Of a DNA stretch of 57,695 bases, positions 13,834 through 40,556 are shown piece after piece. Origin of the DNA: a virus (taxonomy: Duplodnaviria; Caudoviricetes); the IMG/VR virus record IMGVR_UViG_3300027903_000007, positions 1 through 57,695 of that record; one strand, given 5' to 3'. Both the position numbers and the translations under genes were made by a program. The stretch's first letter is position 1, and each line of letters starts with the position of its first letter. A model generated the notes under the pieces. It had not been told where the DNA came from and ran no database searches. It saw nothing but the letters and a program-made list of their open reading frames with translations.

Positions 13834-14468
13834 CTATGGAAGCTTCCTTTCAGCAGACAGTACAAGCTATAGTCGAGATCATTGTCTAATCCTGAAGGTG
13901 GTGAATGGGCATAGCTTTGCCTACGACAAGACAAAGCTAGTTCTGAAGTATGGAGCCAGAACACAGACAGTTTCAAGATAACCTACTTCCATAGAAGTAG
14001 GACAAGTAAGCCGGGATTGTGCTGTCGGCTTTTCTATCTTGATCATTCAATGCGGGAAAATCATACTTCCACCAAACTGTTAATGGAAGTAACTTCCTGA
14101 AGGTGTGCAGCGGTGCAGAGCCTTCTCCTGATCACGCCTCACGGCGGGACCTTAAGGTAGAAGTGGATGCCCTTCCACAGATTCACCCACGGTCTTGATC
14201 CCATGGAGTCGGCCCAAACGGAGGGCTGGCTATGGCCAGCTAACTTTGTTACCGAAGTGATCTGGACTCGGGGGCGGAGGTTGGGTTATTTAGACCCTAG
14301 CTGCCGCGAGCAGCGAATCTCAGATACTTGGTAGAAGCAAGTTTTCTGACGAAGCCGTTCAGCTTGTAACTGGGCGGCTTCACACTTCGTAGCCCTCTTC
14401 ATTATTCTTGTCAAATTGGGTTATTTGATCTGAACGCAACCCTAAAGCTTCCTTGCTTTGTTTAAGGC

Positions 14469-14498
14469 AAAAAAAACCGAGGGCGGTTAAGCCCTCGG
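14469..14498 (-). terminator. Rho-independent terminator
   Basis: CCGAGGGC-TTAACC-GCCCTCGG followed by T8. Confidence 0.85.
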
Positions 14499-14518
14499 CT
14501 CTCTTAGTTGCTGCTGGT

Positions 14519-14860
14519 TTAAACAGTGATCCTCTCGTCACTTGGCTCGTCGATGTCACTCTCATTGTTGAACAGGGCCTGCAGGAACGCGTCATCATTC
14601 AGGCTGTTCTTGTCGACTTCGCCGGTATCAGCTGCCTTTAACACTTTGGCCGCATTGGCGCTGCTGACGTCGTCGTCCATGGCCGCCAGTGAATCCACGC
14701 AGTCATCAATGGCTGACTTTTCCTCGTCCGAGATCAGCTTGGCCTTGTGAAGTTCTGCCACTGTGCGGTGCTTGGTCTTGTCATAGCCGTTCTCTGCCGT
14801 CAGCTTGAACGAAAGATGGGGCATATGGCGGTCAATCACCCTTTTCAGAAGCTTTGACAT
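14519..14860 (-). CDS. Acidic hypothetical protein
   Basis: AACAGGAAGAG SD upstream, terminator downstream. Confidence 0.65.
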   Translation of the reverse strand: MSKLLKRVIDRHMPHLSFKLTAENGYDKTKHRTVAELHKAKLISDEEKSAIDDCVDSLAAMDDDVSSANAAKVLKAADTGEVDKNSLNDDAFLQALFNNESDIDEPSDERITV

Positions 14861-14949
14861 GTGGTTCTCTTCCTGTTTTAGAGCTCCTCAGTTTGATCAA
14901 AAGTGAGCGCTCAAACCCACTTTTGCATATGGCGGGTGCCGCCATATTT

Positions 14950-15339
14950 CTATTGGCCATTAGGCCAAAACTTGAACCTATCAGCCTGCCCTAGCTGTAT
15001 GAGCCTAACATGGGCAACGGTAGCGCCATGTGGCCCAGCCAATGCCCTAAGCATGCTTTGCCTAGCTGCATCACGGGGCCTGCTACCGCGCTTAATAGCC
15101 ACATAAACAGCGCTGGCGGCATTGCTACGGCCTTGGTCATTATAAGTGTTATATCCCAAGCAGATTCTGAGAGCCGTAGCTGGGCCGCGCCTATAGCCGG
15201 GCCGGACCCACATTATAGTAACCATATCGGCGCGAATTGTTTTGTGTGTTTTTCTTTCGATAATAGCCATGGCTGGCATATTGAGCATCGCAGCTCTCCA
15301 GAGCGCGCGCCAATATTTTGGCTCGTGGGTCATTCTCAT
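14950..15339 (-). CDS. Basic hypothetical protein
   Basis: 129 aa ORF with an AGGAAA SD. Confidence 0.5.
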   Translation of the reverse strand: MRMTHEPKYWRALWRAAMLNMPAMAIIERKTHKTIRADMVTIMWVRPGYRRGPATALRICLGYNTYNDQGRSNAASAVYVAIKRGSRPRDAARQSMLRALAGPHGATVAHVRLIQLGQADRFKFWPNGQ

Positions 15340-15350
15340 GAAAATTTCCT

Positions 15351-15418
15351 AAAAGAGGAAGGGTCTGCGGACCGGGAAAACAGGAGGAGAATCCTAAAAA
15401 CCCGATCCGCACCCTTGC
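15351..15418 (-). ncRNA. Candidate anti-Shine-Dalgarno sRNA hairpin
   Basis: Stem AAGGGTGCGGATCGGG / CCCGGTCCGCAGACCCTT encloses TTCTCCTCCTGTTTT and is followed by CCTCTTTT. Confidence 0.5.
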
Positions 15419-15507
15419 TAAGTCAGTCCTAGAGGATACTGACCGCAAACTGCATGGTGGTCACTCATTCAAAGCTTAGAGCAAAACAAATTTCGCTTCA
15501 ACACTCT

Positions 15508-15941
15508 TCATGGCACTGTTTTGACAAAAGCTGATTGTTCCCCTACCACGGCATAAATCAGGTATTTGCCGCCACCAATAGTTTGTTTGGTCTTTGCTGA
15601 AGCTTCAGCCGCTACAAGCGTTGGCGCTTCATCCCTTGCATAGTGACCAACACCATCTTTTTTGACTACGGTAAAGTAGTCGGCATTTTCAGTGAACCAT
15701 GCATCACGTTCTTGATACGTTTGGAAATCAGGTAGCAGTTTGGGTTTCATGGTTGAACCTTTTGACATCCAGGTTGGTCGTTTTCGTCAAAGACAAATTC
15801 ATGTACTGCGTAAGGTGGCCCGTTCATCCAGCCTTCTAAAAATTGGATAGCGATGATGGTGCGGGTTCCAATATCAGTGACACGCCAAATATGATTGTCA
15901 CAGATAAAATCTGTACCGATTACAAATTCTGAATGGTTCAT
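15508..15941 (-). CDS. Two small hypothetical genes (15508-15750, 15747-15941)
   Basis: ATGA-coupled ORFs starting MKPKLL and MNHSEF. Confidence 0.55.
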
Positions 15942-16296
15942 GACAGAATCCTTTTCGCAACATAGAGAACCGGCCATAGCCCAAGTATCATGGCAATCCA
16001 TGCCCAAGGGTCAGGGGAAAGGCCACTTAACATTCCCATTCCAATTAGAACCCATGAAGCAGCAAAAGATATTACTGCTACCAGATCCCATGGATGTTTT
16101 ACGTTTTTGGCCATGATAGTTCTATCTCCTCATTGGTTGGTGGTGGAACTGGTTTAAGATTGAGAAGGTAGTCTTTGACCATCCTCTCACTTACTATTTG
16201 AGAGATGGACATTTTGCCAGCTCTGTTACGTTCGACGTTGATCTCTTGAAGATCAAAGTTTATCCATTGGGGCATATTTTCTCCTGAAAATTGGAC

Positions 16297-16337
16297 AAAT
16301 AAAAAAGGCCCTCGCAGGCATCACAGCTGCGAGGGCC
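16297..16337 (-). terminator. Rho-independent terminator
   Basis: GGCCCTCGCAG-N9-CTGCGAGGGCC followed by TTTTTTATTT. Confidence 0.85.
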
Positions 16338-16379
16338 AAGTCAAGCCGGGTGGGAGGAAACGAGTTCCCGACTTGTAAC

Positions 16380-16910
16380 TTAAACTTTTGCTACTTTAAG
16401 AAAGTATCTTGTGATGGGGCGTTGGCCTTTACGTTGCTCCTTAACACGTTCGACCTTGGCACCATTTTCCTCGAGGGAGTTGAGAACGTTCAGTTGAACA
16501 CTCCCAACTACAGCCTTTACTTCTTCCAGAGATGCACCGCTCTTACGAGCGTACATGGCTACAGCTTTGGATTTGGCACTTCCTTTACGAAATCCCCAAA
16601 TATCCCGTTCTACCTTGCTTTCAGCCTTTGGCTTGGCAGCCTTTACCTTATTATGGGCTTTTGCTGCCCTTACTGTGGCTTTAGGTGCGTTTTTTGCCTT
16701 AGCTAGGGCTTTGGCAGTAGCCTTTTTCACGGGCTTACCAGTGGCCTTTACAGGGGCGTGGTCTTGACCATTATTTTTATCGCTGGCTTTGGTCCGAGCC
16801 GGGCGAGACTCAACTACGCTATCTGCTGCCATGAGCATAAACTCTGCTTTGTTATTGGCATCCCTTATTAAAAATTCAGGAATATCCAAAGGGTGTGTGA
16901 TTTTTATCAC
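16380..16910 (-). CDS. Histone-like K/A-rich protein with a DUF3489-like winged helix
   Basis: KA-rich tract, then 'WGFRKGSAKSKAVAMYARKSGASLEEV'; TTGACA just upstream; start uncertain. Confidence 0.65.
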   Translation of the reverse strand: MIKITHPLDIPEFLIRDANNKAEFMLMAADSVVESRPARTKASDKNNGQDHAPVKATGKPVKKATAKALAKAKNAPKATVRAAKAHNKVKAAKPKAESKVERDIWGFRKGSAKSKAVAMYARKSGASLEEVKAVVGSVQLNVLNSLEENGAKVERVKEQRKGQRPITRYFLKVAKV

Positions 16911-17192
16911 TTAAACTTCCTTATAAGGGCTGTCAAGTGTTGTCAGATTATTTCACAAGATATAATCTTTGCTAAGGCAGGTAGAAGGTGGACTCACCTG
17001 CCTTAATAGTTTGGTTGTCAAGTCTAATCGTGGGGCCACAATCCATTTACGAGATGATAGGTTCCTATACCTATCAGGATAAAATCGAATACCCAATAAG
17101 GCATGATCCTTATGCCAAAAAGAATCTCCCCAAAGTAGTAGGAAGGGTCTGGCAAAAGAGCTATCAAGATGCATAGTGCCCCCACGATTAGT

Positions 17193-20313: not shown

Positions 20314-20374
20314 TTTCTCCTCCTGTTAGAGCAAGGTTGCTCACCACTGCATGGGCCGCAGGACGTGAACATTG

Positions 20375-20584
20375 CTAGCTTAGGTTTGCTATGTCAGACC
20401 AATTACGATATGTTTCTTGTGCGTTCCAACACGTGTCAAGACACGCCAGAAGTGCCTTAACGTACATATCAATTCTGGCAGGGTCACATTTAACTATTCG
20501 TGCATATTGCAAGTCAGAAGAAGCGTTGTGCAATGCACGTTGAGCTAGCTTAACGGAACGTAATAAATACTCATTACTGTTCAT
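20375..20584 (-). CDS. Small hypothetical protein
   Basis: Stop codon abuts a repeat. Confidence 0.55.
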   Translation of the reverse strand: MNSNEYLLRSVKLAQRALHNASSDLQYARIVKCDPARIDMYVKALLACLDTCWNAQETYRNWSDIANLS

Positions 20585-20586
20585 GT

Positions 20587-21774
20587 TTAACCTCCACTTG
20601 TTGAGACAAGGATAGGATAACCAAATGGTACCTTATCCGCTACTGTATGGAAGTGGTTTTCGTGGGTGAACACCGCCCATAGTGTGGGGATGCCGGGATC
20701 TTCACCAAAATCATTCACTTCAAGGTCGGTGAGATAAATGATGCAGCTGGCATCAGGAATATTCTCACGGATGTACTTGAAAGTGTCACTAAAAGCAGTG
20801 CCACCTCCTCCACCTTTTAAGGGCTCAGGTTTTACAATGTCGCCCATCACGTAATGGAAAACATCATGGGCGCGGGTGTCAGCATAGATGACGGTCAATT
20901 GATCTGCCGTGCCTTGATCCAAGGAACCAGCTACTTCACTGAGCATTTCCTTGAACATTTTGTCATTGATACTGCCAGAATCATCCACGGCAAATACCAA
21001 ATGGCTGAGCCTGTCAGACACAACACCGGGCAATAGGGTGCCTATGGCAGTGCTGCGTCGGCTGATCCGCGCCCAAGAAGGCTCTTTGGACAGGGATTGG
21101 TCAATGAAGTTCCATGTCAAATCTTTCCATGAAACCTTTGGCCTATCTAACTCAGCAATCAGATGTCGTAGGATACCGGGCACGTTGCCAATACCGTTAG
21201 CTTTCATAACGGCTATGGCTGATCGCACGGCTTTATCCCAAACGTGTTTGGTTTGTTCTTCACCCGCTTGACCGTTTGGGGCATCCATTACACTTCCAAT
21301 GTCCCATCCGTCTTTATTTACATAGAACTCGATTTCAATTTTGGGAAACGAATCATAGATTTCTTCAGAGGTCATGCCTCTGTACTTTTCGTTAATGCAG
21401 CATTTAAAGTTTTTGCCACTGATCATGACGTCGTGGATCAAAGTGAAGCCTGAATCTTTCAGATCCAAATTGATCACGTAGTCACAGGCCGCATTCCATG
21501 GCCCGTGCTGCCGTTCTTGGCGTCTTGAGAAGTGTTTTAGGCAGCAGTGCATGACCTCATGGCATATCAGGAACTCACATTGCCTATCATCGAGTTGCTT
21601 GATGAAATCAGGATTGTAGTACAATGACACGCCATCCACTGCGCCAGTAGGTATGCTATAGTCTTCAACCAGCCGTAGTTGCATGGCTAGAAAGCCAAAG
21701 AAACCGTTACTGACTAACAGGTTTGTGCGGCCACGGATGATGTCATCATAAGCTTTGCGGTCTTTGATTTGCAT
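20587..21774 (-). CDS. Metallopeptidase + vWA protein (DUF2201-like)
   Basis: 'TGAVDG..YYN', HExxH 'HEVMH', 'WNAACDYVIN', MIDAS 'DDSGSI', 'GGGT', 'YLTD'. Confidence 0.85.
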   Translation of the reverse strand: MQIKDRKAYDDIIRGRTNLLVSNGFFGFLAMQLRLVEDYSIPTGAVDGVSLYYNPDFIKQLDDRQCEFLICHEVMHCCLKHFSRRQERQHGPWNAACDYVINLDLKDSGFTLIHDVMISGKNFKCCINEKYRGMTSEEIYDSFPKIEIEFYVNKDGWDIGSVMDAPNGQAGEEQTKHVWDKAVRSAIAVMKANGIGNVPGILRHLIAELDRPKVSWKDLTWNFIDQSLSKEPSWARISRRSTAIGTLLPGVVSDRLSHLVFAVDDSGSINDKMFKEMLSEVAGSLDQGTADQLTVIYADTRAHDVFHYVMGDIVKPEPLKGGGGGTAFSDTFKYIRENIPDASCIIYLTDLEVNDFGEDPGIPTLWAVFTHENHFHTVADKVPFGYPILVSTSGG

Positions 21775-21905
21775 TTATCTCCTCCTGTTTGAAGCATAGT
21801 GCTTCACTAAGAGGCTGGAGTAGAGGTAGGTCAAGAACTTGCTCCAGCCGATCCCCTACGTTGCCAAAAGGCGGACGTCTTACAGGGACATCTCTTAAGG
21901 CAGCA

Positions 21906-22271
21906 CTAGCGTATCTCGAACGATACCCGTTCATCGTCGTTAGGCTTCGTGTAAGCAGCAAATACTGAAGGTTTATCAGTTTTTAGTGCTTCTTGATCAA
22001 GCCGATTAGTGGGGACGATTTGCAGCACGGCTTTGAATTGATGACCCGGTACTTCGCCTGCCGTGTGATTGAGATGATCTTTGATATAGATCTTGATTTC
22101 CTTGTCGAACTTCTCAATGGTTTTGGCAGCAGCTCTGAAGCGGGCTGCTACGTCGATCTTGTCAGCGGTAGTCATCCGCTCCGTGTCTCTCACAATGGTT
22201 TCCATGATGTCTGACAGATAGTCAAGGTCTTCAACTAACTGTTTACGATCATTTTTCGAATATGGTTTCAT
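21906..22271 (-). CDS. Hypothetical protein
   Basis: AACAGGAGGAG SD. Confidence 0.65.
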   Translation of the reverse strand: MKPYSKNDRKQLVEDLDYLSDIMETIVRDTERMTTADKIDVAARFRAAAKTIEKFDKEIKIYIKDHLNHTAGEVPGHQFKAVLQIVPTNRLDQEALKTDKPSVFAAYTKPNDDERVSFEIR

Positions 22272-22283
22272 GCTCTCCTCCTG

Positions 22284-23333
22284 TTAGATGCGCAAGGTCT
22301 TGTTAGTTCTTGCCCATTTGACAAATGCCTGTGTTTCACACAGGGATTGATCCCGTTTGGTGGCATCCAAGATAACTACGGTGCTGAAATCAGCACCAAA
22401 GTGATCACGGTTTATATATTTCATTATTTGTGCCATGTTAGCAGTGGTCATATTTCTTGCCAGCAACGAGCTCAGGGCAAATCGTGAAGCTGGCTCTTCA
22501 GGAATTAATGTACTCATTGGATCTTTGATGACGTCTTCAAAGTCAGGTAAGTTCAGGGCAGTGAAGAAGGTTTCAACATCTGTTGCGGCTCCTTCACCAA
22601 CGATGCCTGACAACAGTCTGAAGCGCAGCGATCCATCCTTGGTGAATACTTTGGATGCTTGTGTCCAAGACCGTGGCGTTGGGAATGCCAACAAATCAGC
22701 TCCAGCCATTGAGAATAACATTTCAGGTCTCCACTTGATGTACCCCATCAAAAGCGGGTTGACATCGTTTAGATTGGCCCAGCGTAGCCAAGCTTCATAA
22801 TCAGGCCGGATGTGAATGTGTGCAAAACGGTTGGCAAGTGCCGTAGAAATAGACTGTGCAGCTGCACGGTCTTCCCTGCGATTACCTGCTGCCATAGGCC
22901 ACCAGCCGGGTGGCAATTTGAAGTCACCAATTTGGCGATCCAAAATCACACGATAGATACATGATTGTAAGTTACGTGGGGCATCACTAAGTTCATCGAA
23001 TGCAATGATACCACGTTTACCATCACGCTTTTCTTCAGGCCAAAAAGTAGCGCGTAGCCAAACGGCTACACGATTTTCAAGGTCAGGCACAGGAATACCT
23101 GTCAAGTCTTCAGGCAACATGGTGCTGACACGGACATCAATGAAGCCAGTTTTGTCTTCATCTTTGTCTTCATCAGCAAGTTGATGCATGATGGCTGATT
23201 TTCCGAGGCCCGGCGGTGAATGCAGGTAAAGAGGAATATCCTCTTCCCTGAAAATTCGAGCTAGCTCTTTCGCACCTTCAATAGTTTCAGTGCGAACCGC
23301 CGTGACCCCGGTGGTAACTTGGGTTTCAGACAT
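22284..23333 (-). CDS. MoxR-like AAA ATPase
   Basis: 'SPPGLGKS', 'FDELS', 'AAGNR', 'ALANRF', 'TPRSW'. Confidence 0.88.
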   Translation of the reverse strand: MSETQVTTGVTAVRTETIEGAKELARIFREEDIPLYLHSPPGLGKSAIMHQLADEDKDEDKTGFIDVRVSTMLPEDLTGIPVPDLENRVAVWLRATFWPEEKRDGKRGIIAFDELSDAPRNLQSCIYRVILDRQIGDFKLPPGWWPMAAGNRREDRAAAQSISTALANRFAHIHIRPDYEAWLRWANLNDVNPLLMGYIKWRPEMLFSMAGADLLAFPTPRSWTQASKVFTKDGSLRFRLLSGIVGEGAATDVETFFTALNLPDFEDVIKDPMSTLIPEEPASRFALSSLLARNMTTANMAQIMKYINRDHFGADFSTVVILDATKRDQSLCETQAFVKWARTNKTLRI

Positions 23334-23397
23334 ATTTTCTCCTCCTGTGAAGCATGGCGCTTCTCATATGGCAGCACTGCTGCCATAGATAGAAACG

Positions 23398-23769
23398 TCA
23401 GCTGATATCATCATCTTTGGTGGCTTCAGTGCCGTTGCCATCGCCGATGATGGTGGTGAACATATTGCTGTGCACTGTGCGAGCACGAGCTAATGCGTTG
23501 CTGAAGCGATGCCTGTTACCGACAAACATGCTGTGGTTTTCGCCATAAACGATATTTCTGATTATCGGAGGCAAGTTGATCACGTTGTTATCGGCATGCA
23601 GTTCATACATGCCATCAAAGCGAACATATTGGTGACCGCGATCCCTGAGGTACTGAGCAATGGCACATTGCCATGGATCACTTGCGTCGTAAGAGCCAGT
23701 TTTGGTTTCAAGCCAGTTGATCAAGTCTTGAATGTCGTCAACTGTAGCTTCTTTCTCAATATAAGGCAT
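23398..23769 (-). CDS. Hypothetical cassette gene
   Basis: Exactly bounded by two repeats. Confidence 0.7.
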   Translation of the reverse strand: MPYIEKEATVDDIQDLINWLETKTGSYDASDPWQCAIAQYLRDRGHQYVRFDGMYELHADNNVINLPPIIRNIVYGENHSMFVGNRHRFSNALARARTVHSNMFTTIIGDGNGTEATKDDDIS

Positions 23770-23844
23770 GAAATTCTCCTCCTGTTTGATGCATCAGTGC
23801 ATCTTTAAACGCATCTTGTGAGATGCGTTCCGTAGCTGCACTAA

Positions 23845-24714
23845 TCATTTCATGTAGCCTTGAACCTTTTTCAGGATGGCATCGGCCTTGCTGATGGTGA
23901 CAGCCCTCAGCTTGGCATCGGTTCGTAACATCACAGGTGATGCCACCAGATCAGCGGTTAGCCGCTTTTCTAGTTCAGTGATGCGTGGGTCGTTAGTGAT
24001 ATTAAGGATAGGCAACACGCGGGTTAGCTCAAAGATATTCTGCACGATTGAGTCCCGTATGATTGAATCTGCTCGCTTTCCAGCTTGAGGCTGATAGGCA
24101 CGCAGTTTTTCTACCATATGAAGGACCAGCTCTTCAATTCGCTTGAATATATCATCCATGGCGTTTTGAAGGCGTTGGTTAGTGCGTGTTTCAATATCTT
24201 TGACGATGGCCTTGCTGGCATCATTGCCAAGTTTAGCACGGAAATCATTAGCTTCTGGCACTGAATTGATTTCTACATCAAAGTCGAATTTTTCTTTGAT
24301 TTCATCAAGGCTCGGGTAATCCTCAGCATCAAACATTTTGCCGAGACGTACTGAGCCGTCTTTGATGTAATCATTTCGCATGGTCAAAAATTCTTTGATT
24401 TGAGCTTCTGCCTTACGTCGGCAATCTTGCATCAAGGCCACATAGTTGATGTAACCAGCGCTGGCTAAAATTCGCGTGCCATCGTCTTCCCATGGTAATG
24501 TGAGAAGCTTGTGGGTTTTGCGAGCTTTGGTATGGGCTTGTGAAACACCTTTTAGGAAACTAGAAGCGACGAGACGTTTGTTATAGCGGCCGGCTTCTTT
24601 GTCTGCCTTGTAGCTTTCATTGACGTCTTCAGTGATTTCTTTATCAAGCATCATGCCTGACCAAGATGATATGCGCAATGTAACCAGCATTGCACGTTCT
24701 GCTAAGTTACTCAT
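23845..24714 (-). CDS. DUF3150-like coiled-coil protein
   Basis: 'LVTLRISSWSG..K..TLPW..G.RIL..DYPS..F.F', a type commonly found beside phage MoxR/vWA pairs. Confidence 0.65.
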   Translation of the reverse strand: MSNLAERAMLVTLRISSWSGMMLDKEITEDVNESYKADKEAGRYNKRLVASSFLKGVSQAHTKARKTHKLLTLPWEDDGTRILASAGYINYVALMQDCRRKAEAQIKEFLTMRNDYIKDGSVRLGKMFDAEDYPSLDEIKEKFDFDVEINSVPEANDFRAKLGNDASKAIVKDIETRTNQRLQNAMDDIFKRIEELVLHMVEKLRAYQPQAGKRADSIIRDSIVQNIFELTRVLPILNITNDPRITELEKRLTADLVASPVMLRTDAKLRAVTISKADAILKKVQGYMK

Positions 24715-24890
24715 GTTCTCCTCCTGTTTGAAGCTGAATGCTTCTCACTGCGGCTCTTAAGCCGCAGGACAGAAACATTCACCAACTGGACCAATCCCAG
24801 TAAAGTGCGCGAGCACTTCTAGCTAAAAGTTTGTCAAGCCATTTAAAAGGATTGTATCTTTGGATTTTGGACCAAGGTTCAGGAGGTCGA

Positions 24891-25391
24891 TCACTCATCG
24901 GTTTGATTGATCACACCAGCATTCATTTTGAGATGCTCAGCAGCCATCTTTCGCATGCGGGTAGCTACTGCCAATTCAGCAATGGCTCCTGTGCGTTGAT
25001 AAATAGGATATTTGTCGCTGTTGAAGAGCTCAAATGCTTGCTCTTCAGCAAGATCGAAGAGTTGCATGGCAGCATTCCAATTGTCTACCGTGAACAAAGC
25101 CGTGGTCATCACGGGCACCAGCCTGCCGTCTCTTATTTGGTACGTGAGACCTTCTTTTTTGAAGGCTCCGCTGAGGACAAACAGGCCAAAGGCACAGGCC
25201 TGTGTTCCACAATTTACTGGGATTACAGTATCCTCTTTGTATTGCTTGATTTGGGGTACCTGAGAGAAGGGTTTAGAAAGGTCCACACTCGCATCAGCAG
25301 CCCAGACGTTGAGATTGAATTTGATTCCTTCTGGATTGACTGCATCTGCCTCAAGCAGTTCGGCACCTCTTAACATGAGATCTGTTCTCAT
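24891..25391 (-). CDS. Hypothetical cassette gene (CGTxACxxG motif)
   Basis: Repeat+RBS upstream; 'CGTQACAFG'. Confidence 0.7.
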   Translation of the reverse strand: MRTDLMLRGAELLEADAVNPEGIKFNLNVWAADASVDLSKPFSQVPQIKQYKEDTVIPVNCGTQACAFGLFVLSGAFKKEGLTYQIRDGRLVPVMTTALFTVDNWNAAMQLFDLAEEQAFELFNSDKYPIYQRTGAIAELAVATRMRKMAAEHLKMNAGVINQTDE

Positions 25392-25568
25392 AATTTTCTC
25401 CTCCTGTTAGAGCAAGATTGCTCACCACAGAAGCCCGTGGGCTTCTGGACGTCAGCAATCATGAATCTGAGTAATAGACCCACACAATGAATGTGTAGCG
25501 GATCCAGATAATGGACCGTAAATAGATGCGTCGTATATGACGACGCAAAGGCCGTTTCATTGTGTTTC

Positions 25569-28296
25569 CTACTTGATGTCGTCAATGACGAGGATGAACT
25601 GTTTGGGGTTTGTTATCCCCAATGCCTTCAGGGCAGCTTTGCGCAAGTAGACAGGGCCTATGACTTGACCGTCATTGTCATTTTTCCTTGGCTGCCCCGC
25701 ATCATCAACTTCCTGATAACGCATTGCACCGGGGGTATCATTTTTCCACACAAAGTTCAATTGAATCTTGGCCATGATTTTCTCCTCCTGTTTGAAGCAA
25801 AATGCTTCTCACAGCAGCCCTTAGGCTGCTGGACAGAAACATTCAGTTGAATGTATTGATGATGCGCTCAAGCGGTGACAATTTAGAATTTTCACCTTCC
25901 TTGAGCCAACGTCGCCAATCCTTGGCAGTTTTGGGTGGTGACAGAGCTTTGATGATTTTGGCTCGCACTTTTTTGCTGAGTTTGTGCTTCTTTGCCATTA
26001 CACAGGCTCTTTGATATTGGGAAAGCCGATGATGATATCGGCGTCATCCCAGCCTTTGAACCATTCAGTGGCAGCTATAAGGTCACTGACACCGACTTCG
26101 ATCTTGTTTTGCCCATAGGGGACGGCGGCACGAGGGGCACCAGCTATACGAGCTTGTACACCTTTTAGCCATGGGTCTGTTCTATTGTTCATGTTTCTCC
26201 TCCTGTTTGAAGCATGAGCGCTTCTCACAGCCCCCATAAAGGGGCTGGACAGAAATGCTCAGAAGTCTTCGTAGTTTCGATGTTTGTTCTCACCCTTTAC
26301 AGGCTCATCAGGACTCAGCATGCATCCGACATGCCAGCCGATGTATCCTGCAATGACAGTTGCGATGATTGTGAGTACAGGATCGATTTGGCAAGCTGCA
26401 AATGTTGCAAATACAGCAATGCCAGTAGCACTTCCGACTTTGGTTTCAAGTTTCATAACAACTCCTCCTGTTTGAAGCATAATGCTTCTCACTACCCCCC
26501 TTAGGGGGCAGGACAGAAGCATTTCACACCGTAGGATCAAGTGCGAACAGCAGGTTGGTGAGAAATGTCGCATGCATTTCATAATCAGGATGATAACAAT
26601 GCACAGTCCAGATCCCAATTGCCGAACAGATCAAAATAGTGCGGTAGTAGTGCCGCTTGACTTTGATTCTATGGATCGGGCAATGAATTTTGGATATTTT
26701 GAAGCCTCTCATTGGCTTACTTCTCCAACTGAGCAGTGACGGCTTTATCTGCCGCAGCTGCATAGATTTTCTCCCGGATGTTTTTGGTGAGGTTCAATTC
26801 AAAGTCGATATCGACAATTGAAATCAAGCCAACCAGAACCACCGCGAAAACTACTTTCAGTTGTTTGAGTGGGTCATCCATGTTTCTCCTCCTGATTGAA
26901 GCAAAATGCTTCTCACTGCCACCCTTAGGTGGCAGGACAGAAACATTCAGTTGAATGTGGAGGCATTTTCACTTGGGGCTAGAAGCTCAGCAATCCACCA
27001 ATCTTTGTAGAGAGTGTTTTTATTTCTTAATTGGTAGTTTACAGCCTCTTGTTCCGCTTCAAATGGGCCAATGTAGCGAAAGCCATAGACTGGGCTTCCG
27101 CTAATAATGAAGTATTTCATTGGAGGTCTTCTAGAGTTGGCCATGAGTGTAAGCGGCTGTTAGCACCAGCGCAAACAACAGGATGAATCCCAGCATTATA
27201 AGACCATTAGTTGGCAGGCCTTCATCTTCAGGTTCGTATTGCATGATTAACCTCCACAGTTGCGCAGTAGATGCGCGTAAGGCACGAAGAAAGTGACACC
27301 CAATGCGAAAGCTATGATCAATGCAACAGCTGTGAACTTTGCTAACATTTCCACGTTCTCCTCCTGATTGAAGCTGAATGCTTCTCACTGCGGCTCTTAA
27401 GCCGCAGGACAGAAACATCAGGTATCATCGATATCAAAGTGATCGACTGTTTCAGCAGCCAAATCTTCCTTGCGGTCACCAACAAGAAGCCAGCCATTGC
27501 CGTCATCACTGGGGTCATAAAGAACGTATGCTCCCGGTATCACCGCAACACGGGCTTTGAGGTTTGAAAGAACTTTGGCTTCGTCGACGCCTGAGTTCAT
27601 ATCTTCAGGCGTTAATGCATTGAAACAATCACGCGAGACCAACCGATAGCCTAACGCTTTAACCATGGTCTCATTTGCTTGATCATCTGTCATTAGGCTG
27701 CGTACCAGAGCCACGGTTCAATTCTGGCAATTTGCTCTTGTCGATGAATGAGGTACAGCTGCTGAATGGCTTGAAAGGAAGGCCAGTAGCGTACTCTTTT
27801 ATAACGTTCATGTTTGCTCCAACCCAAAGACACAGGTGGCGGAATGTCTGGGTTGACATCATGGCTAAGCTTATGAGATCCACTCATCTAACCCTCCGCT
27901 TGAGTGAAGGAATTTCCGTGAAGGAAATCTCGTTCTTGATCAAGCCAATGGCTTCATCAAAAGCGTTGATCCACGGTTCGTGGTTGGGGATATCTTTACC
28001 ACGGTTGATCTTTGCCATGGTAAGTCGCACATCGTCTAATATCCCCAATGCGCATGCTATTGCTATCTTACTCATGATTTTCTCCTCCTGTTGAAGCATA
28101 ATGCTTCTCACAGCAGCCCTTAGGCTGCTGGACAGAAACATTAGTCATAGGATGACGGGATGATAGGTAACTTCATGCGGTCATTCCATATAGTGCTGCG
28201 TTGTGACTTGGCCATCTCCATTTCAAACCGCTCTTCAGCAGCTGCCATTTCAATGACTATCCCTGTCACCAAAATGATCACGGTGATGCGGATCAT
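25569..28296 (-). CDS. Run of about 13 small cassette genes, several with TM segments (25569-25775, 25843-25998, 25998-26192, 26259-26456, 26524-26712, 26717-26881, 26947-27120, 27131-27244, 27247-27348, 27418-27693, 27693-27887, 27884-28075, 28141-28296)
   Basis: Starts reassigned by hand to the ATG after each AGGAGG or coupled stop; stops often coincide with the first bases of the next repeat. Confidence 0.6.
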
Positions 28297-28718
28297 TTGA
28301 AGATCAAGCCATCTAAGCCGTATGGCCCACCGCCTGATAATACCAACTCAATCAGGATGAGGGCGTACAGAACCTCAGGGAGGTACAGCACGTCATCCAG
28401 ATAGTCAGCCTTGTCAAGTGGCTTCCAGCCACCAATGCGTTTCAGGCCATCGGTGAATGTTGCACCACAACAGATGATGAACAATCCGAAGGCTGCTACG
28501 GGTGTGAAGAGCCCCCATAGTAACGCAATACCTCCCAAGAATTCAGCTATTGGTACAAACCAACTGTTGAATTTGGGTTCGGGGATATGATCATCCATCA
28601 TGGTTTGAGCCACAGTGGCATGACGCACTGGATTAAATAGCTTGTGATAGCCCGATATACTGAAAAATACCCCCATGCCTATTCGCAGTATTGTGATGCC
28701 GATTAAAGGTAGCTCCAT
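28293..28718 (-). CDS. DoxX family membrane protein
   Basis: 'LRIGMGVFFSISGYHKL..AEFLGGIALLWGLFTPVAA..GGGPYGLD'. Confidence 0.85.
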   Translation of the reverse strand: MELPLIGITILRIGMGVFFSISGYHKLFNPVRHATVAQTMMDDHIPEPKFNSWFVPIAEFLGGIALLWGLFTPVAAFGLFIICCGATFTDGLKRIGGWKPLDKADYLDDVLYLPEVLYALILIELVLSGGGPYGLDGLIFK

Positions 28719-28803
28719 TTTTCTCTCCTCCTGTTGAAGCAAAATGCTTCAAGAAACATATTTGTTTGTGGTATGCTTCTTGAAACATTAGTGAGAATTT
28801 AAA

Positions 28804-29103
28804 ATGGTTCAAACTCCGAAACGAGCTTTTCAATATCATCGCAATAACGCGAGAAGACGGAAAATTGAATTTAACTTTACATTTGAAGAATGGGTTAAAT
28901 GGTGGGAGACTAATTTAGGGCTTGATTGGTATTTAAAACGTGGATGCAAATCAGGGCAGTACGTAATGGCTAGGAAGCGAGATAGAGGTGCTTATGAAGT
29001 AGAGAATGTTAAATGTATTCTTTGTAATTTAAATAATCTTGAAAGTATGTACGGAGAGGGTAGGAATCACCCTCTCCGTAGGAGAAACATTCAGTCGCCG
29101 TGA
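28804..29103 (+). CDS. Free-standing HNH-like endonuclease (paralog of 18181-18627)
   Basis: 'NARRRKIEFNFTFEEWVKWW..GQYVMARKRDRGAYEVENVKCI..N'. Confidence 0.75.
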   Translation: MVQTPKRAFQYHRNNARRRKIEFNFTFEEWVKWWETNLGLDWYLKRGCKSGQYVMARKRDRGAYEVENVKCILCNLNNLESMYGEGRNHPLRRRNIQSP

Positions 29104-29258
29104 TGGCCTCTCAACCCCATACGCTCTTCCATGAGGTCAGCCACGTAATTGGTGACGTTTACCAAGTCTCTCATCTTGATGGCCACATAGAGCGAGGCAA
29201 GCGACACAATGAGCGTTGTGGCTGTGGCCAAGGCCAGCAGGATCATATCGACTACCAT
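29091..29258 (-). CDS. Small membrane protein (55 aa)
   Basis: Hand-translated MVVDMILLALATA...; its TGA begins a half-repeat. Confidence 0.55.
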   Translation of the reverse strand: MVVDMILLALATATTLIVSLASLYVAIKMRDLVNVTNYVADLMEERMGLRGHHGD

Positions 29259-29263
29259 GATGG

Positions 29264-29740
29264 TCAGTCTATTGCGTCGATGACGCCGACCGCGTCATTA
29301 GCTTCGAAAACTGATTCTTCAGCATCAAGCCCTTCCATGAAGCCTGCTGCTGCTGTGCCCTTCTGGCCGTTATCGTTCAGCGTGTATTCACCATTGTCGA
29401 CAAAGTAGGTGAACATGGTTGTCTGAATGACTTCGTTGACAGCTTCTCGCCATTCACCATCTTTGATGATGTTGACCCCTACGCCGACCGAGTCACGACC
29501 ATCAGCAGCCACTGTAGCAACAACGTTTTTGCCGATGTTGATGTCTTGGAAATTGACTGTGACAGTGCAGTCACCCCAAGCTGGGCCATGCCGGAGGGCA
29601 ATGGCATTGCCGAGGTTGCTAACGCGCCAGTCGTCGCCAATGCTGAGTTCGTCCAGACCTACTGTAAATTCATCACTACTCCATGTCAGGGTTGGTGTGG
29701 ACAGGGTCTTTTCGGGATCGCCTACTTTATAGAATATCAT
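29264..29740 (-). CDS. Acidic hypothetical cassette gene
   Basis: ATG follows the repeat RBS. Confidence 0.65.
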   Translation of the reverse strand: MIFYKVGDPEKTLSTPTLTWSSDEFTVGLDELSIGDDWRVSNLGNAIALRHGPAWGDCTVTVNFQDINIGKNVVATVAADGRDSVGVGVNIIKDGEWREAVNEVIQTTMFTYFVDNGEYTLNDNGQKGTAAAGFMEGLDAEESVFEANDAVGVIDAID

Positions 29741-29809
29741 AATATCTCCTCCTGTTGAAGCAGGATTGCTTCTCACAGCATCCCATAGGATGCTGGACAG
29801 AAACATTCA

Positions 29810-30016
29810 TCATTTAACTCGTAACTTCCATGGTCTTCGGGGTACTTCCGCAGGAGTGAGCCTGCGCTTTCGCTCCAGTTCAGTTTCTTGAGCTACAGCG
29901 GTTGCTATGGCAGCTCGGCATTGGTCACAGCTGACTCTCTTCTTCAGATGATACTTGTACTTGAACCATGTACCGCAATGCCTGCAATATTTACTACGGG
30001 TCGAGCCTCTAAGCAT
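29810..30016 (-). CDS. Small Zn-finger protein
   Basis: CRHC...CDQC. Confidence 0.55.
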   Translation of the reverse strand: MLRGSTRSKYCRHCGTWFKYKYHLKKRVSCDQCRAAIATAVAQETELERKRRLTPAEVPRRPWKLRVK

Positions 30017-30018
30017 TC

Positions 30019-30519
30019 TTACCTCTCTTCAAACGCAAAGCGTGAAACGTCAAGGACATACCCAACTTCGTGACGCTCAAGAGCATCAATAGAATGTTTG
30101 TGCAGTTTTGGTTGAAGTTCAAAGGCTTCCCTTTCCCATGGAAGATCTTTGTAAGCCACGTCAGAAGTACAAATGAATTTTGGGAAATACTGACCGCACC
30201 AGTTGCACCCTCCTTCTTGCTCTTGCACATCTGAAAGATCACCGCGCAAGTATTGAGCGATGTGAGTTGTTTCATGGCCAAGCACTGAGATGCCTTCAAA
30301 CAGATTGAATCCGTTTGCATTGAGTACGACCATGAAGTAGTCGGATGTTAAGCATCCCATTGACCCTAGATGATTTTTGGGGCCAATGTTTGCGCGACGT
30401 ACAGCTACGGTGCAATCACGTTCTGTGATGCCAAGATGCTTACAGTTCGACTTGAATGTTTTTGTTAGGATGGTTTTTTCCTTTTGAGTGAAACCATCAT
30501 CAAAAAGAATGGTTGGCAT
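30019..30519 (-). CDS. HExxH metallopeptidase-like protein, first gene of the cassette array
   Basis: 'LGHETTHIAQY..YKDLPWEREAF'; AAACAGGAGGAG SD. Confidence 0.75.
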   Translation of the reverse strand: MPTILFDDGFTQKEKTILTKTFKSNCKHLGITERDCTVAVRRANIGPKNHLGSMGCLTSDYFMVVLNANGFNLFEGISVLGHETTHIAQYLRGDLSDVQEQEGGCNWCGQYFPKFICTSDVAYKDLPWEREAFELQPKLHKHSIDALERHEVGYVLDVSRFAFEER

Positions 30520-31901
30520 GATTTTCTCCTCCTGTTTGATAATCATGATGATCATCGGAGGTGACAGCAACAAAGACATTCAGCTGCACTCATTTGGGGG
30601 AATGAGTCGGGGTATTTGCAGCTTTGTTCCCTATCGCTTCAGGGGGCTTGGTGGAAAAGCGATAGTTGCCTGAGCACTGTCACCACCGATAATCAAAGGT
30701 GATGAAAGGAGCTGGCCCGTAGGCCAACCCCCTTCACCTTTGTAAACAGAAGGAGGAGATATTTCACCAATGCCCATTTATGCGCAAAGCAAACTTTACC
30801 GGCAGCTGCATTAGGTTTGGGCAAACAGATAACAAGTTGATTGGTTTGCCGTTGCGTTTGAGGGGTATTAATAACTCAGGGGTAGTTTCAGAATAGAGTG
30901 TAGTGATGCTGTGTAATTGCATTCATGCTGCACATCCAAGCTTTAGTGCCGTTGCTTTATTTGCAGTTGGATGACCTGCCTACGTACCCGCGCCGAACCT
31001 AAACGGTTACAGCGGCTGTAGGTGTGGAACCCTACGAGAATTATACTTATAGGTCAGTTTGTGCGGCATTGAGTTAAGAACCCATGCCAAACGCGCCTAG
31101 CAGCCCTTAGTGGTGCCCTTGCTGAAAAGGGCTAGTACCCTAGCTAAAATTTGAAATAGCTCATTATGAGCCATTTGTGGCCCGCCTAAGGGCTATTTTA
31201 GCGTTGTAATACCGTGACTTACATTTTGACATGCAAAACCTGCCGAATTTAGTTTTAAACAGGTTTGCACATGAATGCTAATTCTTCAGCTGCTTTACTT
31301 GAGGCAAAATGGTGCATTGGTGACCGTGGCCCATGCTGGCATGTTCGGGTTTGTCAACCGTTAGCGCCTTTTATTATGCGCCTATGGCTTTACACCGTGC
31401 GCCGCATATGGCGGCATCATGCTAGCTTGCGCATGTTTCAGCGCGGGCTCAATCCGGGGCAGGTATGCTTTCACTGCTAGTGCCAGTTTGACCGGGGTAG
31501 GCTTCAATGGAAGCGCTTGTTTGTGCAGCGCCGTCATAGTGACATAAGCCTTGACCATGTAACCAGCGGGCTTGATTTGCCCTTTTCCTTTGGGGCTTAG
31601 GGCTGAGGAGCGCCGTAGCGTTCAGCTTGTAACCTTCATAGCTTAGGGGTGAGGACTGACCAGATTCACCTTGTCACCTTAGCAGCCTAGAGTTCCTGCG
31701 TTTATTGGCCGGTTTAGTGTCACGCCTTAGTGCACTCCTATTGCGGCTGGCTCACCGCGCCAGCTAAGCCTTTGAAGGGCTTAGCTGACTTTTTGCGCCA
31801 CCTGAATTCGTGCCGTGAACAGGCGCAAATCAGGCAGCAGTGCCCAACACTAACCCGGTCAAAATGTGTGCAAAGCCAGAAGTTACGCTTCTTCACAAGT
31901 T

Positions 31902-37887: not shown

Positions 37888-37962
37888 GCCGGTTTAGCAC
37901 AGTGGAAGTGCATCTCATTTGTAACGAGAAGGTCGTGGGTTCAAATCCTACAACCGGCACCA
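37888..37962 (+). tRNA. tRNA-Thr(TGT)
   Basis: Full cloverleaf: GCCGGTT/AACCGGC acceptor, TT-TGT-AA loop, GGTTCAAATCC, encoded CCA. Confidence 0.95.
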
Positions 37963-39964: not shown

Positions 39965-40556
39965 GATAATTAAATTACCAATGCCTCAAGTTGTTCCTCG
40001 TGTTGGAAATTATTTAGGTAGACCAGGTCCAACAACAAGCCAAAAGAAGTTAAAATCTTTGCGCAGGCATGCAGTCCCACCGGGGGGTATTTTGAATCCT
40101 TATGGCTGTTATGGTAATACGCGCAAGCAACGTTATAGGATTACTTGGTTTGGCTTGAAACTCAAACCTGCCCTGAGGGAGGAAGCATTGAAGAGGAACA
40201 GAATTAAACTTCAACAAAAGAAAGCGATTCAGCTTGAGTTGCATGAACTGCAAGCTTTAGCTCGTGAGAATGCTACGGCGGCAATGCACACTCTTGTTGA
40301 GATTATGAAGAATAAGCGTGCACCCGAGGCAAATAGAATTGCTGCATCAGCAGTTGTTCTTGATCGTGGTTATGGGAAAGCTTCCCAAGTGAGTATAACT
40401 GCAAGTGTCACCAATGGCAAAGCTGATAACCTCGATTCAACCGAACTCGACAAGCGAATTAGCCGAGCTCTCAAGAGAGTTGAGGATCTTACAAACCGAA
40501 CGCCAAAAGCGGGAACGGGCCAAAAACGACCTGTTAACCTACGCCTCTATAATTAA
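39957..40556 (+). CDS. Probable terminase small subunit
   Basis: Lies just before TerL; 'AMHTLVEIM..RIAASAVVLDRGYGKA..LDSTEL'. Confidence 0.7.
   Translation: MVKIIKLPMPQVVPRVGNYLGRPGPTTSQKKLKSLRRHAVPPGGILNPYGCYGNTRKQRYRITWFGLKLKPALREEALKRNRIKLQQKKAIQLELHELQALARENATAAMHTLVEIMKNKRAPEANRIAASAVVLDRGYGKASQVSITASVTNGKADNLDSTELDKRISRALKRVEDLTNRTPKAGTGQKRPVNLRLYN

Follow-up and report, generated by a model that had tools for sequence, protein, structure and literature searches.

A hairpin encoded on the minus (operon) strand at 15351-15418 of this phage contig is a conserved, single-copy RNA structure in which selection keeps both the pairing of the stem and the sequence of the loop. We read it, with a probability of about 0.45, as part of a phage RNA whose anti-Shine-Dalgarno terminator loop would pair with the leaders of the cassette genes; judged from the sequences on both sides, base pairing with these leaders would be the most economical function for the conserved loop. 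The window, i.e., the whole stretch of DNA that was analysed, comprises 57,695 bases; it is a virus contig from IMG/VR with a rated completeness of ~62%. The locus comprises the following features.

15361-15414, minus strand: hairpin B, with its 5' arm at 15414-15401, a 24-nt loop at 15400-15377 and its 3' arm at 15376-15361, supported by folding, covariance model and covariation.
15377-15392, minus strand: anti-leader AUUCUCCUCCUGUUUU in the loop of hairpin B, the complement of AAAACAGGAGGAGAAU, with the apical hexaloop UUCUCC.
15351-15360, minus strand: pyrimidine tail UUCCUCUUUU directly 3' of hairpin B, mixed C/U and weak as a terminator tail.
15415-15448, minus strand: hairpin A (GGUCAGU...ACUGACU) with loop AUCCUCUAGGA, the upstream part of the conserved spacer RNA, holding a second CU-rich motif.
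15508-15768, minus strand: 86-aa gene (p86), conserved in all lineages as the neighbour on the upstream side of the hairpin.
14950-15339, minus strand: 129-aa gene downstream of the hairpin, conserved in the window's own group only.

A motif scan of the window found a single plus-strand copy of AAACAGGAGGAGAA (15378-15391), which belongs to the plus-strand 16-mer AAAACAGGAGGAGAAT (15377-15392). The copy lies in the 168-nt spacer separating two minus-strand genes, inside the 24-nt loop of the hairpin, and a check of the window sequence found no ATG, GTG or TTG at ribosome-site spacing after it. When up to one mismatch was allowed, AAACAGGAGGAGAA had 13 matches in the window against a chance expectation of 0.02, a number that was reached in none of 100 shuffles. 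Every one of the remaining 12 matches is on the minus strand, where 11 are the ribosome-binding sites of genes at 20.3-30.5 kb and one lies at 14865-14878. The original prediction had described a plus-strand motif with no start codon after it, enclosed by a stem of about 15 bp, and this picture was borne out: in the predicted fold, GGGUGCGGAUCGGG (15414-15401) pairs with CCCGGUCCGCAGACCC (15376-15361) over 14 GC-rich base pairs with an AG bulge. The loop reads UUUUUAGGAUUCUCCUCCUGUUUU on the minus strand. Within it UAGGA pairs with UCCUG while the apical UUCUCC stays free, in agreement with the partial AGGA/UCCU cage that had been proposed.

The predicted targets of this loop lie several kilobases upstream in the operon direction and share one leader design.

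20315-30537, minus strand: cassette region of 16 genes, each with a leader made of a small hairpin (GAAGCAnnnUGCUUC), then (A)AACAGGAGGAGAA, then the start codon; predicted targets.

The sequence CAGGAGGAG stands just ahead of the start codon in 16 minus-strand genes between 20,325 and 30,534. Five exact minus-strand copies of AAACAGGAGGAGAA (at 23774, 24716, 25780, 26195 and 30524) fall within 1-2 nt of the five positions at which the loop had been said to complement cassette leaders perfectly, and the near-perfect match claimed for the other cassettes held as well (16 leaders with CAGGAGGAG; 12 minus-strand copies of AAACAGGAGGAGAA at ≤1 mismatch). Outside the cassettes, AGGAGGAG occurs at a start codon in one plus-strand gene only (30751), and the late plus-strand genes are without it. 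The small hairpin of the leader covaries (GAAGCA/UGCUUC, GAUGCA/UGCAUC or GAGCAA/UUGCUC), and because the target sequence is directly 3' of this hairpin it should be exposed. The leader consensus was identical across all 9 sets compared, without variation among the lineages examined.

Each cassette gene is also preceded by a two-hairpin module, found in the window (20315-30537, minus strand) and in L008, L009, L141, L145 and L158, and kept in all related phages. Its first hairpin has a variable, covarying stem (e.g., CUGCCCC-UUACAA-GGGGCAG) without a U-tail and is followed by UGAGAAGCAnnnUGCUUC, (A)AACAGGAGGAGAA and the start codon. It may serve as a site of processing, as a stabiliser or as a phage promoter. 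One of the cassette genes (20587-21774, minus strand) encodes a DUF2201 putative metallopeptidase with a VWA-like domain.

A ranking of targets, which had been suggested together with the original prediction, was run within the phage by sliding the 24-nt loop along both strands of the window and computing duplex energies. The best site was the loop's own antisense, and cassette leaders made up 15 of the 16 best sites after it. Once the cost of opening both partners had been subtracted, the net pairing energy for the 16 leaders ranged from -5.6 to -16.8 kcal/mol. On the side of the hairpin, opening would cost 0.0 kcal/mol for the apical 6 nt and 7.8 kcal/mol for the 15-nt seed.

Relatives were sought in several collections. 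The phage GenBank collection held no DNA match to 14000-17000 and no protein match to the 423-aa gene, and PHROGs and Pfam gave no family for eight neighbouring ORFs, including both flanking proteins. The plus-strand ORF that overlies the element (15010-15432) has no family and overlaps a conserved minus-strand gene, and was treated as spurious. A search of IMG/VR with both flanking proteins recovered four related lineages. In the close relative G001 the entire spacer is near-identical to that of the window; a relative with 66% identity in the 86-aa protein has a wholly different stem (AUGCCCCGUGUG/CACACGGGGCAU), and its loop still has UUCUCCUCCUGUU. A loop-pattern scan of IMG/VR gave at least 117 stretches, which were then folded, and among the matches listed an enclosing stem was present only in the family's own contigs. 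Two further stems came from these listed matches (UGCCCGCUGGG/CCCAGCGGGCA and UGGCCACUGAGG/CCUCAGUGGCCA), both followed by UUUUUGU. The other listed matches, without an enclosing stem, appear to be unrelated ribosome sites or coding matches.

To keep the loop out of the choice of relatives, a loop-independent set was assembled by searching with an alignment of the 86-aa protein. This returned the same 8 loci as before in IMG/VR, all with the hairpin downstream of the gene, and 15 loci in a metagenome collection, 13 of them with the hairpin in that place. The two exceptions are L140, which breaks off, and L148, which carries a different hairpin and lacks the motif. The L148 hairpin (around 260-330) has 11 bp and a 25-nt loop with AUCCCCCGU and without CUCCUCC, on a contig too short to show leaders. 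Elsewhere the hairpin varies in its details: that of L142 consists of CGCCGCUACUGGC, the loop UUUGGGAUUCUCCUCCUGU, GCCAGUAGCGGCG and the tail UUUUUUAUUUG, that of L143 has a 15-bp stem with three G·U pairs and the loop UUUCAGUCCUCCUGUA, and that of L149 has a shorter loop, UUGGCUCCUCCUGU. A scan with the leader pattern led to G005, a complete 93-kb relative, in which 13 leader-type copies are accompanied by a single anti-leader copy 5.5 kb downstream (in operon direction) of the last nearby leader copy; the hairpin there is formed by the stem GGGCCGGUU/AACCGGCCC and the loop UGACCAAGGCCUCCUCCUGGGUUG. Two further genomes, G006 (32% complete) and G007 (rated complete; possibly from outside this phage family), have 3 and 2 leader-type copies, respectively, no anti-leader copy and no match to the covariance model described below; the blank in G007 counts neither for nor against the reading.

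The protein-based and pattern-based scans thus place the same hairpin in related phage contigs in at least eight differently stemmed versions. From group to group the stems have unrelated sequences (GGGUGCGGAUCGGG, AUGCCCCGUGUG, UGCCCGCUGGG, UGGCCACUGAGG, CGCCGCUACUGGC, CUGCCCGUCGUUAGG and GGGCCGGUU), and 12 of 13 lineages retain the loop core CUCCUCCUG, L143 having GUCCUCCUG instead. The original prediction expected the loop to be conserved where the cassette ribosome site is, and the loop was present in all four related IMG/VR lineages, in 13 of the 15 metagenome loci and in G005. Anti-leader and leader copies number 1 and 12 in the window, 1 and 12 in G001, 1 and 6 in G002, and 1 and 13 in G005. 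The place of the hairpin is constant across relatives, downstream of the 86-aa gene and of the cassettes, in an order that runs from a 176-aa gene through small genes to the 86-aa gene and ends with the hairpin, in some cases with one to a few additional small genes before it.

Covariation was assessed on an alignment of 11 distinct hairpins with 151 pairing cells. RNAalifold predicted 14 pairs, 9 of them with changes on both sides, and compensatory change was seen in 9 of the 11 pairs of the main helix. Pairing was possible in 96.7% of the cells, compared to 45-56% when the 3' partners were shifted by 1-3 columns, and neither the observed pairing nor the covariation score was matched in any of 500 shuffles. 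The small inner helix of the loop is conserved as well. A covariance model built from the alignment gave one strong match per phage locus (in the window 15354-15416, minus strand, 71.5 bits), and its other matches were weak and lay at ordinary terminators; as most of the matched loci had contributed to the model, this demonstrates a single copy and does not amount to independent discovery. No Rfam family reached threshold in the window, the best matches around the locus being chance-level eukaryotic families.

The alignment also bears on the strand. Fifteen of its cells are G·U pairs on the minus strand that become C·A mismatches on the opposite strand, where pairing is 87.4% instead of 96.7%. 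Taken together with U-rich 3' tails on the same strand, this pattern identifies the minus (operon) strand as the functional one, as the original prediction had favoured; the alternative offered alongside it, a plus-strand GGA-loop sponge, was not supported by the comparison. Function could in principle lie in a plus-strand RNA, with the ribosome site or GGA in its loop acting as a decoy for ribosomes or a CsrA-like protein, or in a 13-bp duplex DNA operator used in both orientations. The plus-strand motif is indeed a perfect strong ribosome site lacking a start codon, and a DNA-binding protein would be indifferent to orientation. However, the G·U cells and the U-tail both point to the other strand, there is a single GGA loop where sponges of the CsrA/RsmA type carry several on the transcribed strand, and covarying stems favour an RNA hairpin over a duplex DNA site. 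Given the G·U pattern and the tail, the plus-strand and operator readings are the least likely of the rivals, and we give them only a very slight chance.

In its stem the hairpin resembles a Rho-independent terminator, for which a GC-rich helix of 5-15 bp is typical: the stem is GC-rich and spans 14 bp in the window and, perfect or with G·U pairs, 9-15 bp in relatives, an A-rich stretch precedes it, and a clean U-tract (UUUUUGU, UUUUUUAUUUG or UCUUUUGUG) follows it in the L141, L145, L142 and L009 groups. In contrast, its loop of 14-24 nt is conserved in sequence and far exceeds the ~3-8 nt of usual terminators, and a terminator consensus scan (loops of 3-8 nt) did not report hairpin B. The window's group and G005 have a mixed C/U tail (UUCCUCUUUU) instead of a clean U-tract, which makes a defined 3' end uncertain in the window's group. 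An ordinary operon terminator or 3' stabiliser would account for the GC-rich stem and the U-rich tail of four groups, and the conservation of its loop might have another cause, for instance a phage or host protein that binds it, with the leader match arising as the CU-rich mirror of any strong Shine-Dalgarno sequence. G005, which is complementary in a 9-nt core only, fits such an origin, as does the conserved 5' half of the loop (UUUGGGA or UUUUUAGGA), which is not complementary to the leaders. We consider this explanation unlikely, while allowing it a real chance. Apart from the loop length and the silent scan, it has to accommodate a conserved core that is the exact reverse complement of the most conserved 9-13 nt of the leaders, and an anti-leader orientation found once per genome against a chance expectation of 0.02 copies; as for the conserved 5' half of the loop, the inner helix that shapes the apical loop can explain it.

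For the pairing of loop and leaders, which remains our preferred reading, the extent of complementarity is informative. The loop had been described as carrying a perfect 14-15 nt address. This stands for the window's group, where 15-16 nt are complementary, but it does not extend to other lineages, in which the match is 12-14 nt, or only 10 nt in L149 and 9 nt in G005. The leaders are unchanged even so, and 12 of them in G005 retain AAACAGGAGGAGAA. A long address is therefore not essential, given the 12-13 nt of several lineages and the 9 nt of G005. In every lineage compared, the complementarity ends at the loop and never enters the stem.

Judged by its sequence, the invariant part of the loop appears close to a generic anti-Shine-Dalgarno core. 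In addition, 10 of 13 lineages have a second C-rich stretch, predicted to be unpaired, at 30-60 nt upstream of the anti-leader hairpin (window 15415-15448, minus strand, and the homologous spacers of L139, L009, L144, L145, L142, L143 and L157; examples are CCUCU, UUCCCCCUCU and UCCCCCGUCCCCCC), which is weak evidence because chance alone should produce such 4-mers about once per 80 nt. Both features would suit a general anti-Shine-Dalgarno RNA that acts mainly on host mRNAs to shut off host translation, with the phage leaders as lesser targets: its core would be of the generic CCUCC type, and C-rich sRNAs with multiple targets likewise carry further unpaired motifs, with the same caution as to chance occurrence. 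Yet the 16 leaders of the phage itself match best and would be the first to be hit, and the scan of reference genomes for the 86-aa family, being empty, leaves no host leaders to rank. We grant host shut-off as the main role a slim chance.

The setting of the hairpin in the genome bears on when such an RNA might be made. Two further features of the minus strand are relevant.

16294-16343, minus strand: canonical terminator (CCCUCGCAG...CUGCGAGGG, then U6), conserved in relatives and preceding the small operon with hairpin B at its end.
15473-15501, minus strand: candidate promoter-like element (TTGAAG, 17-nt spacer, TAAGCT) just past the p86 stop codon.

In all lineages, a canonical terminator about 1 kb upstream of the hairpin is followed by a short operon ending with the 86-aa gene, and the covariance model gave weak matches at the homologous terminator place in 5 loci. 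The promoter-like element is conserved with the same spacing (TTGAAG/17-nt/TAARCT) in all five lineages of the window's group and absent from the L009 group and L143; the match is weak (7 of 12 positions in the window), and a consensus promoter scan did not report it. It is suggestive of a start near 15466, which would give an RNA of ~115 nt. The L145 and L142 groups have one more canonical terminator, at ~85-100 nt upstream of the anti-leader hairpin, which brackets a unit of ~100 nt. For the 86-aa protein itself, a predicted fold (pLDDT 84.3) had no PDB match at E≤0.001; its best rows were weak and roadblock-like (TM ~0.2), and for this reason an RNA-binding fold is not claimed. Reference prokaryote genomes scanned with the 86-aa family held no relative, which leaves no host and no host 16S tail to compare.

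Downstream of the hairpin, the tail sequence UUCCU could pair with the AGGAA ribosome site of the 129-aa gene (window 15341-15360, minus strand), and UUAGGAAAUU in this region is invariant across the five lineages of the window's group; the pairing may form a small translational lock on the 129-aa gene. In L138 (2860-2930) a 65-nt insertion separates the hairpin tail from the ribosome site of the 129-aa homologue. Downstream of the hairpin, the genes vary from lineage to lineage, and the synteny upstream is kept. Among the minus-strand genes downstream are those for an SNF2-type helicase, a DnaB-like helicase, a primase-like protein and an AAA ATPase, which leaves the hairpin flanked by the cassette block on one side and the replication module on the other. 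The genome of the window is composed of cassette, replication and structural modules. A tRNA-Thr (anticodon UGU; 37888-37962, plus strand) marks the junction of two divergent arms, and at the start of the plus-strand arm the gene for the large terminase subunit (Terminase_6N; 40405-42882, plus strand) has an intein inside (Intein_splicing and Hint domains).

This position is also what would be expected if the roles were reversed. The hairpin would then be a terminator guarding the replication genes, and leaders with AACAGGAGGAGAA would pair with the nascent loop and disturb the hairpin so that transcription reads through; accumulation of early mRNA would in this way switch on the middle genes. 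The complementarity, strand and conservation data serve such a switch equally well, the tail is terminator-like, the hairpin lies exactly between cassettes and replication genes, and many leaders facing a single loop would be a favourable stoichiometry. Termination controlled by RNA pairing also has precedents in the P4 CI RNA and in the attenuators of the plasmids pT181 and pIP501. Against this, a complementarity that enters the stem in no lineage would leave the stem free to form, and it is the downstream genes that vary between lineages while the upstream synteny is constant. The chance that we allow the reversed roles is small.

Returning to repression by pairing, the mechanism that we infer would run as follows. 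The region 15351-15466 (minus strand) would yield a conserved structured RNA, either as its own transcript of ~115 nt or as the stable 3' end of the small operon ending with p86. Its 3' element, a GC-rich terminator-like hairpin, would present the CU-rich UUCUCCUCCUGUU at the apex of an unusually large loop, complementary to the (A)AACAGGAGGAGAA leader of the 16 upstream cassette genes. If this RNA accumulates, its loop would approach the Shine-Dalgarno region of the leaders through a kissing contact between UUCUCC and GGAGAA, from which pairing would then spread. Such pairing would prevent 30S subunits from reaching the leaders and might also open the mRNAs to attack by a double-strand RNase, so that one RNA from downstream of the cassettes would turn the whole set down as the phage moves on to its replication genes. 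Two points speak against pairing of this kind: a 14-bp helix within a closed 24-nt loop is topologically strained, and a single RNA species would need to titrate the 16 sites of each polycistronic message.

RNAs that expose a C-rich anti-Shine-Dalgarno loop are known in Gram-positive bacteria and include RsaE/RoxS. The CU-rich terminator loop of Listeria LhrC is described as binding the Shine-Dalgarno region of lapB (PMC4132741), and the C-rich loops 7, 13 and 14 of S. aureus RNAIII as pairing with ribosome sites, after which RNase III cleaves the complex (PMC2837412, where CyaR is named as well); the 6C sRNA (PMC6486639) also falls into this group. As described there, LhrC and RNAIII block initiation, and hairpin B is like them in displaying a pyrimidine-rich motif in an unpaired hairpin loop (in LhrC the terminator loop itself) that faces the Shine-Dalgarno sequences of several mRNAs, with the apical UUCUCC free and 9-16 nt complementary to the 16 leaders. 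The possible extra C-rich motifs upstream of the anti-leader hairpin are a further likeness to C-rich-loop sRNAs. Unlike these, hairpin B is phage-encoded and would act on the phage's own genes, its complementarity to a repeated leader reaches 9-16 nt where UCCC-type seeds have 4-6 nt, its 16 near-identical targets lie in one genome, and it belongs to no Rfam family.

Among phage RNAs, P4 CI is one RNA with two repeated target sites and an effect on termination, and P22 sar is likewise a phage antisense immunity RNA. To our knowledge, regulatory RNAs encoded by phages are few in lytic-type genomes, and known phage antisense RNAs act on one or two sites. The c4 RNA of P1/P7 has loops that pair around the ribosome site of the phage's own mRNA, as summarised in a review (PMC12197685). 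Going by that summary, c4, which acts in trans, shares with hairpin B that it is a small phage RNA with loops complementary around a ribosome-binding site and originating from the same region. Hairpin B has a loop complementary to repeated ribosome sites of the phage's own mRNA, as in the c4/CI type, with no family match to that type in sequence or structure by Rfam. It is unlike c4, CI and sar in that each of those governs a single operon (ant, or the P4 replication genes) of a temperate phage through one or two sites, compared to 16 here.

A functional analogue, which is not a relative, is T4 RegB, for which the shared GGAG of early mRNAs (extended consensus GGAGRAYARAA) is described as a common address for inactivating many of them (PMC3014915). 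The shared Shine-Dalgarno motif of early messages would serve as the address here as well, but RegB is a protein nuclease, described as helped by ribosomal protein S1, whereas the reader of the address in this phage would be an RNA loop. We hold somewhat more tentatively than the pairing itself the view that this lineage of uncultivated soil phages makes a single 'master' RNA, whose terminator loop would read the extended ribosome-binding site common to the early cassettes and shut all of them off together, as an RNA counterpart of RegB timed by its place at the end of the early unit.

An anti-Shine-Dalgarno loop RNA is of a known kind; that it would be phage-encoded and aimed at the phage's own repeated leader is new and partly supported by the comparison of sequences. 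No phage RNA that addresses a class of its own genes through the ribosome site is described in the main texts covered by a full-text literature search or in the phage-sRNA review cited above (PMC12197685). The comparative data already define a new conserved RNA structure. If the proposed pairing holds, it would explain the uniformity of the cassette leaders, it would be the first case found in the literature covered of one RNA addressing a whole temporal gene class through a shared ribosome-binding site, and it would offer a compact and portable off-switch in which one RNA controls many genes.
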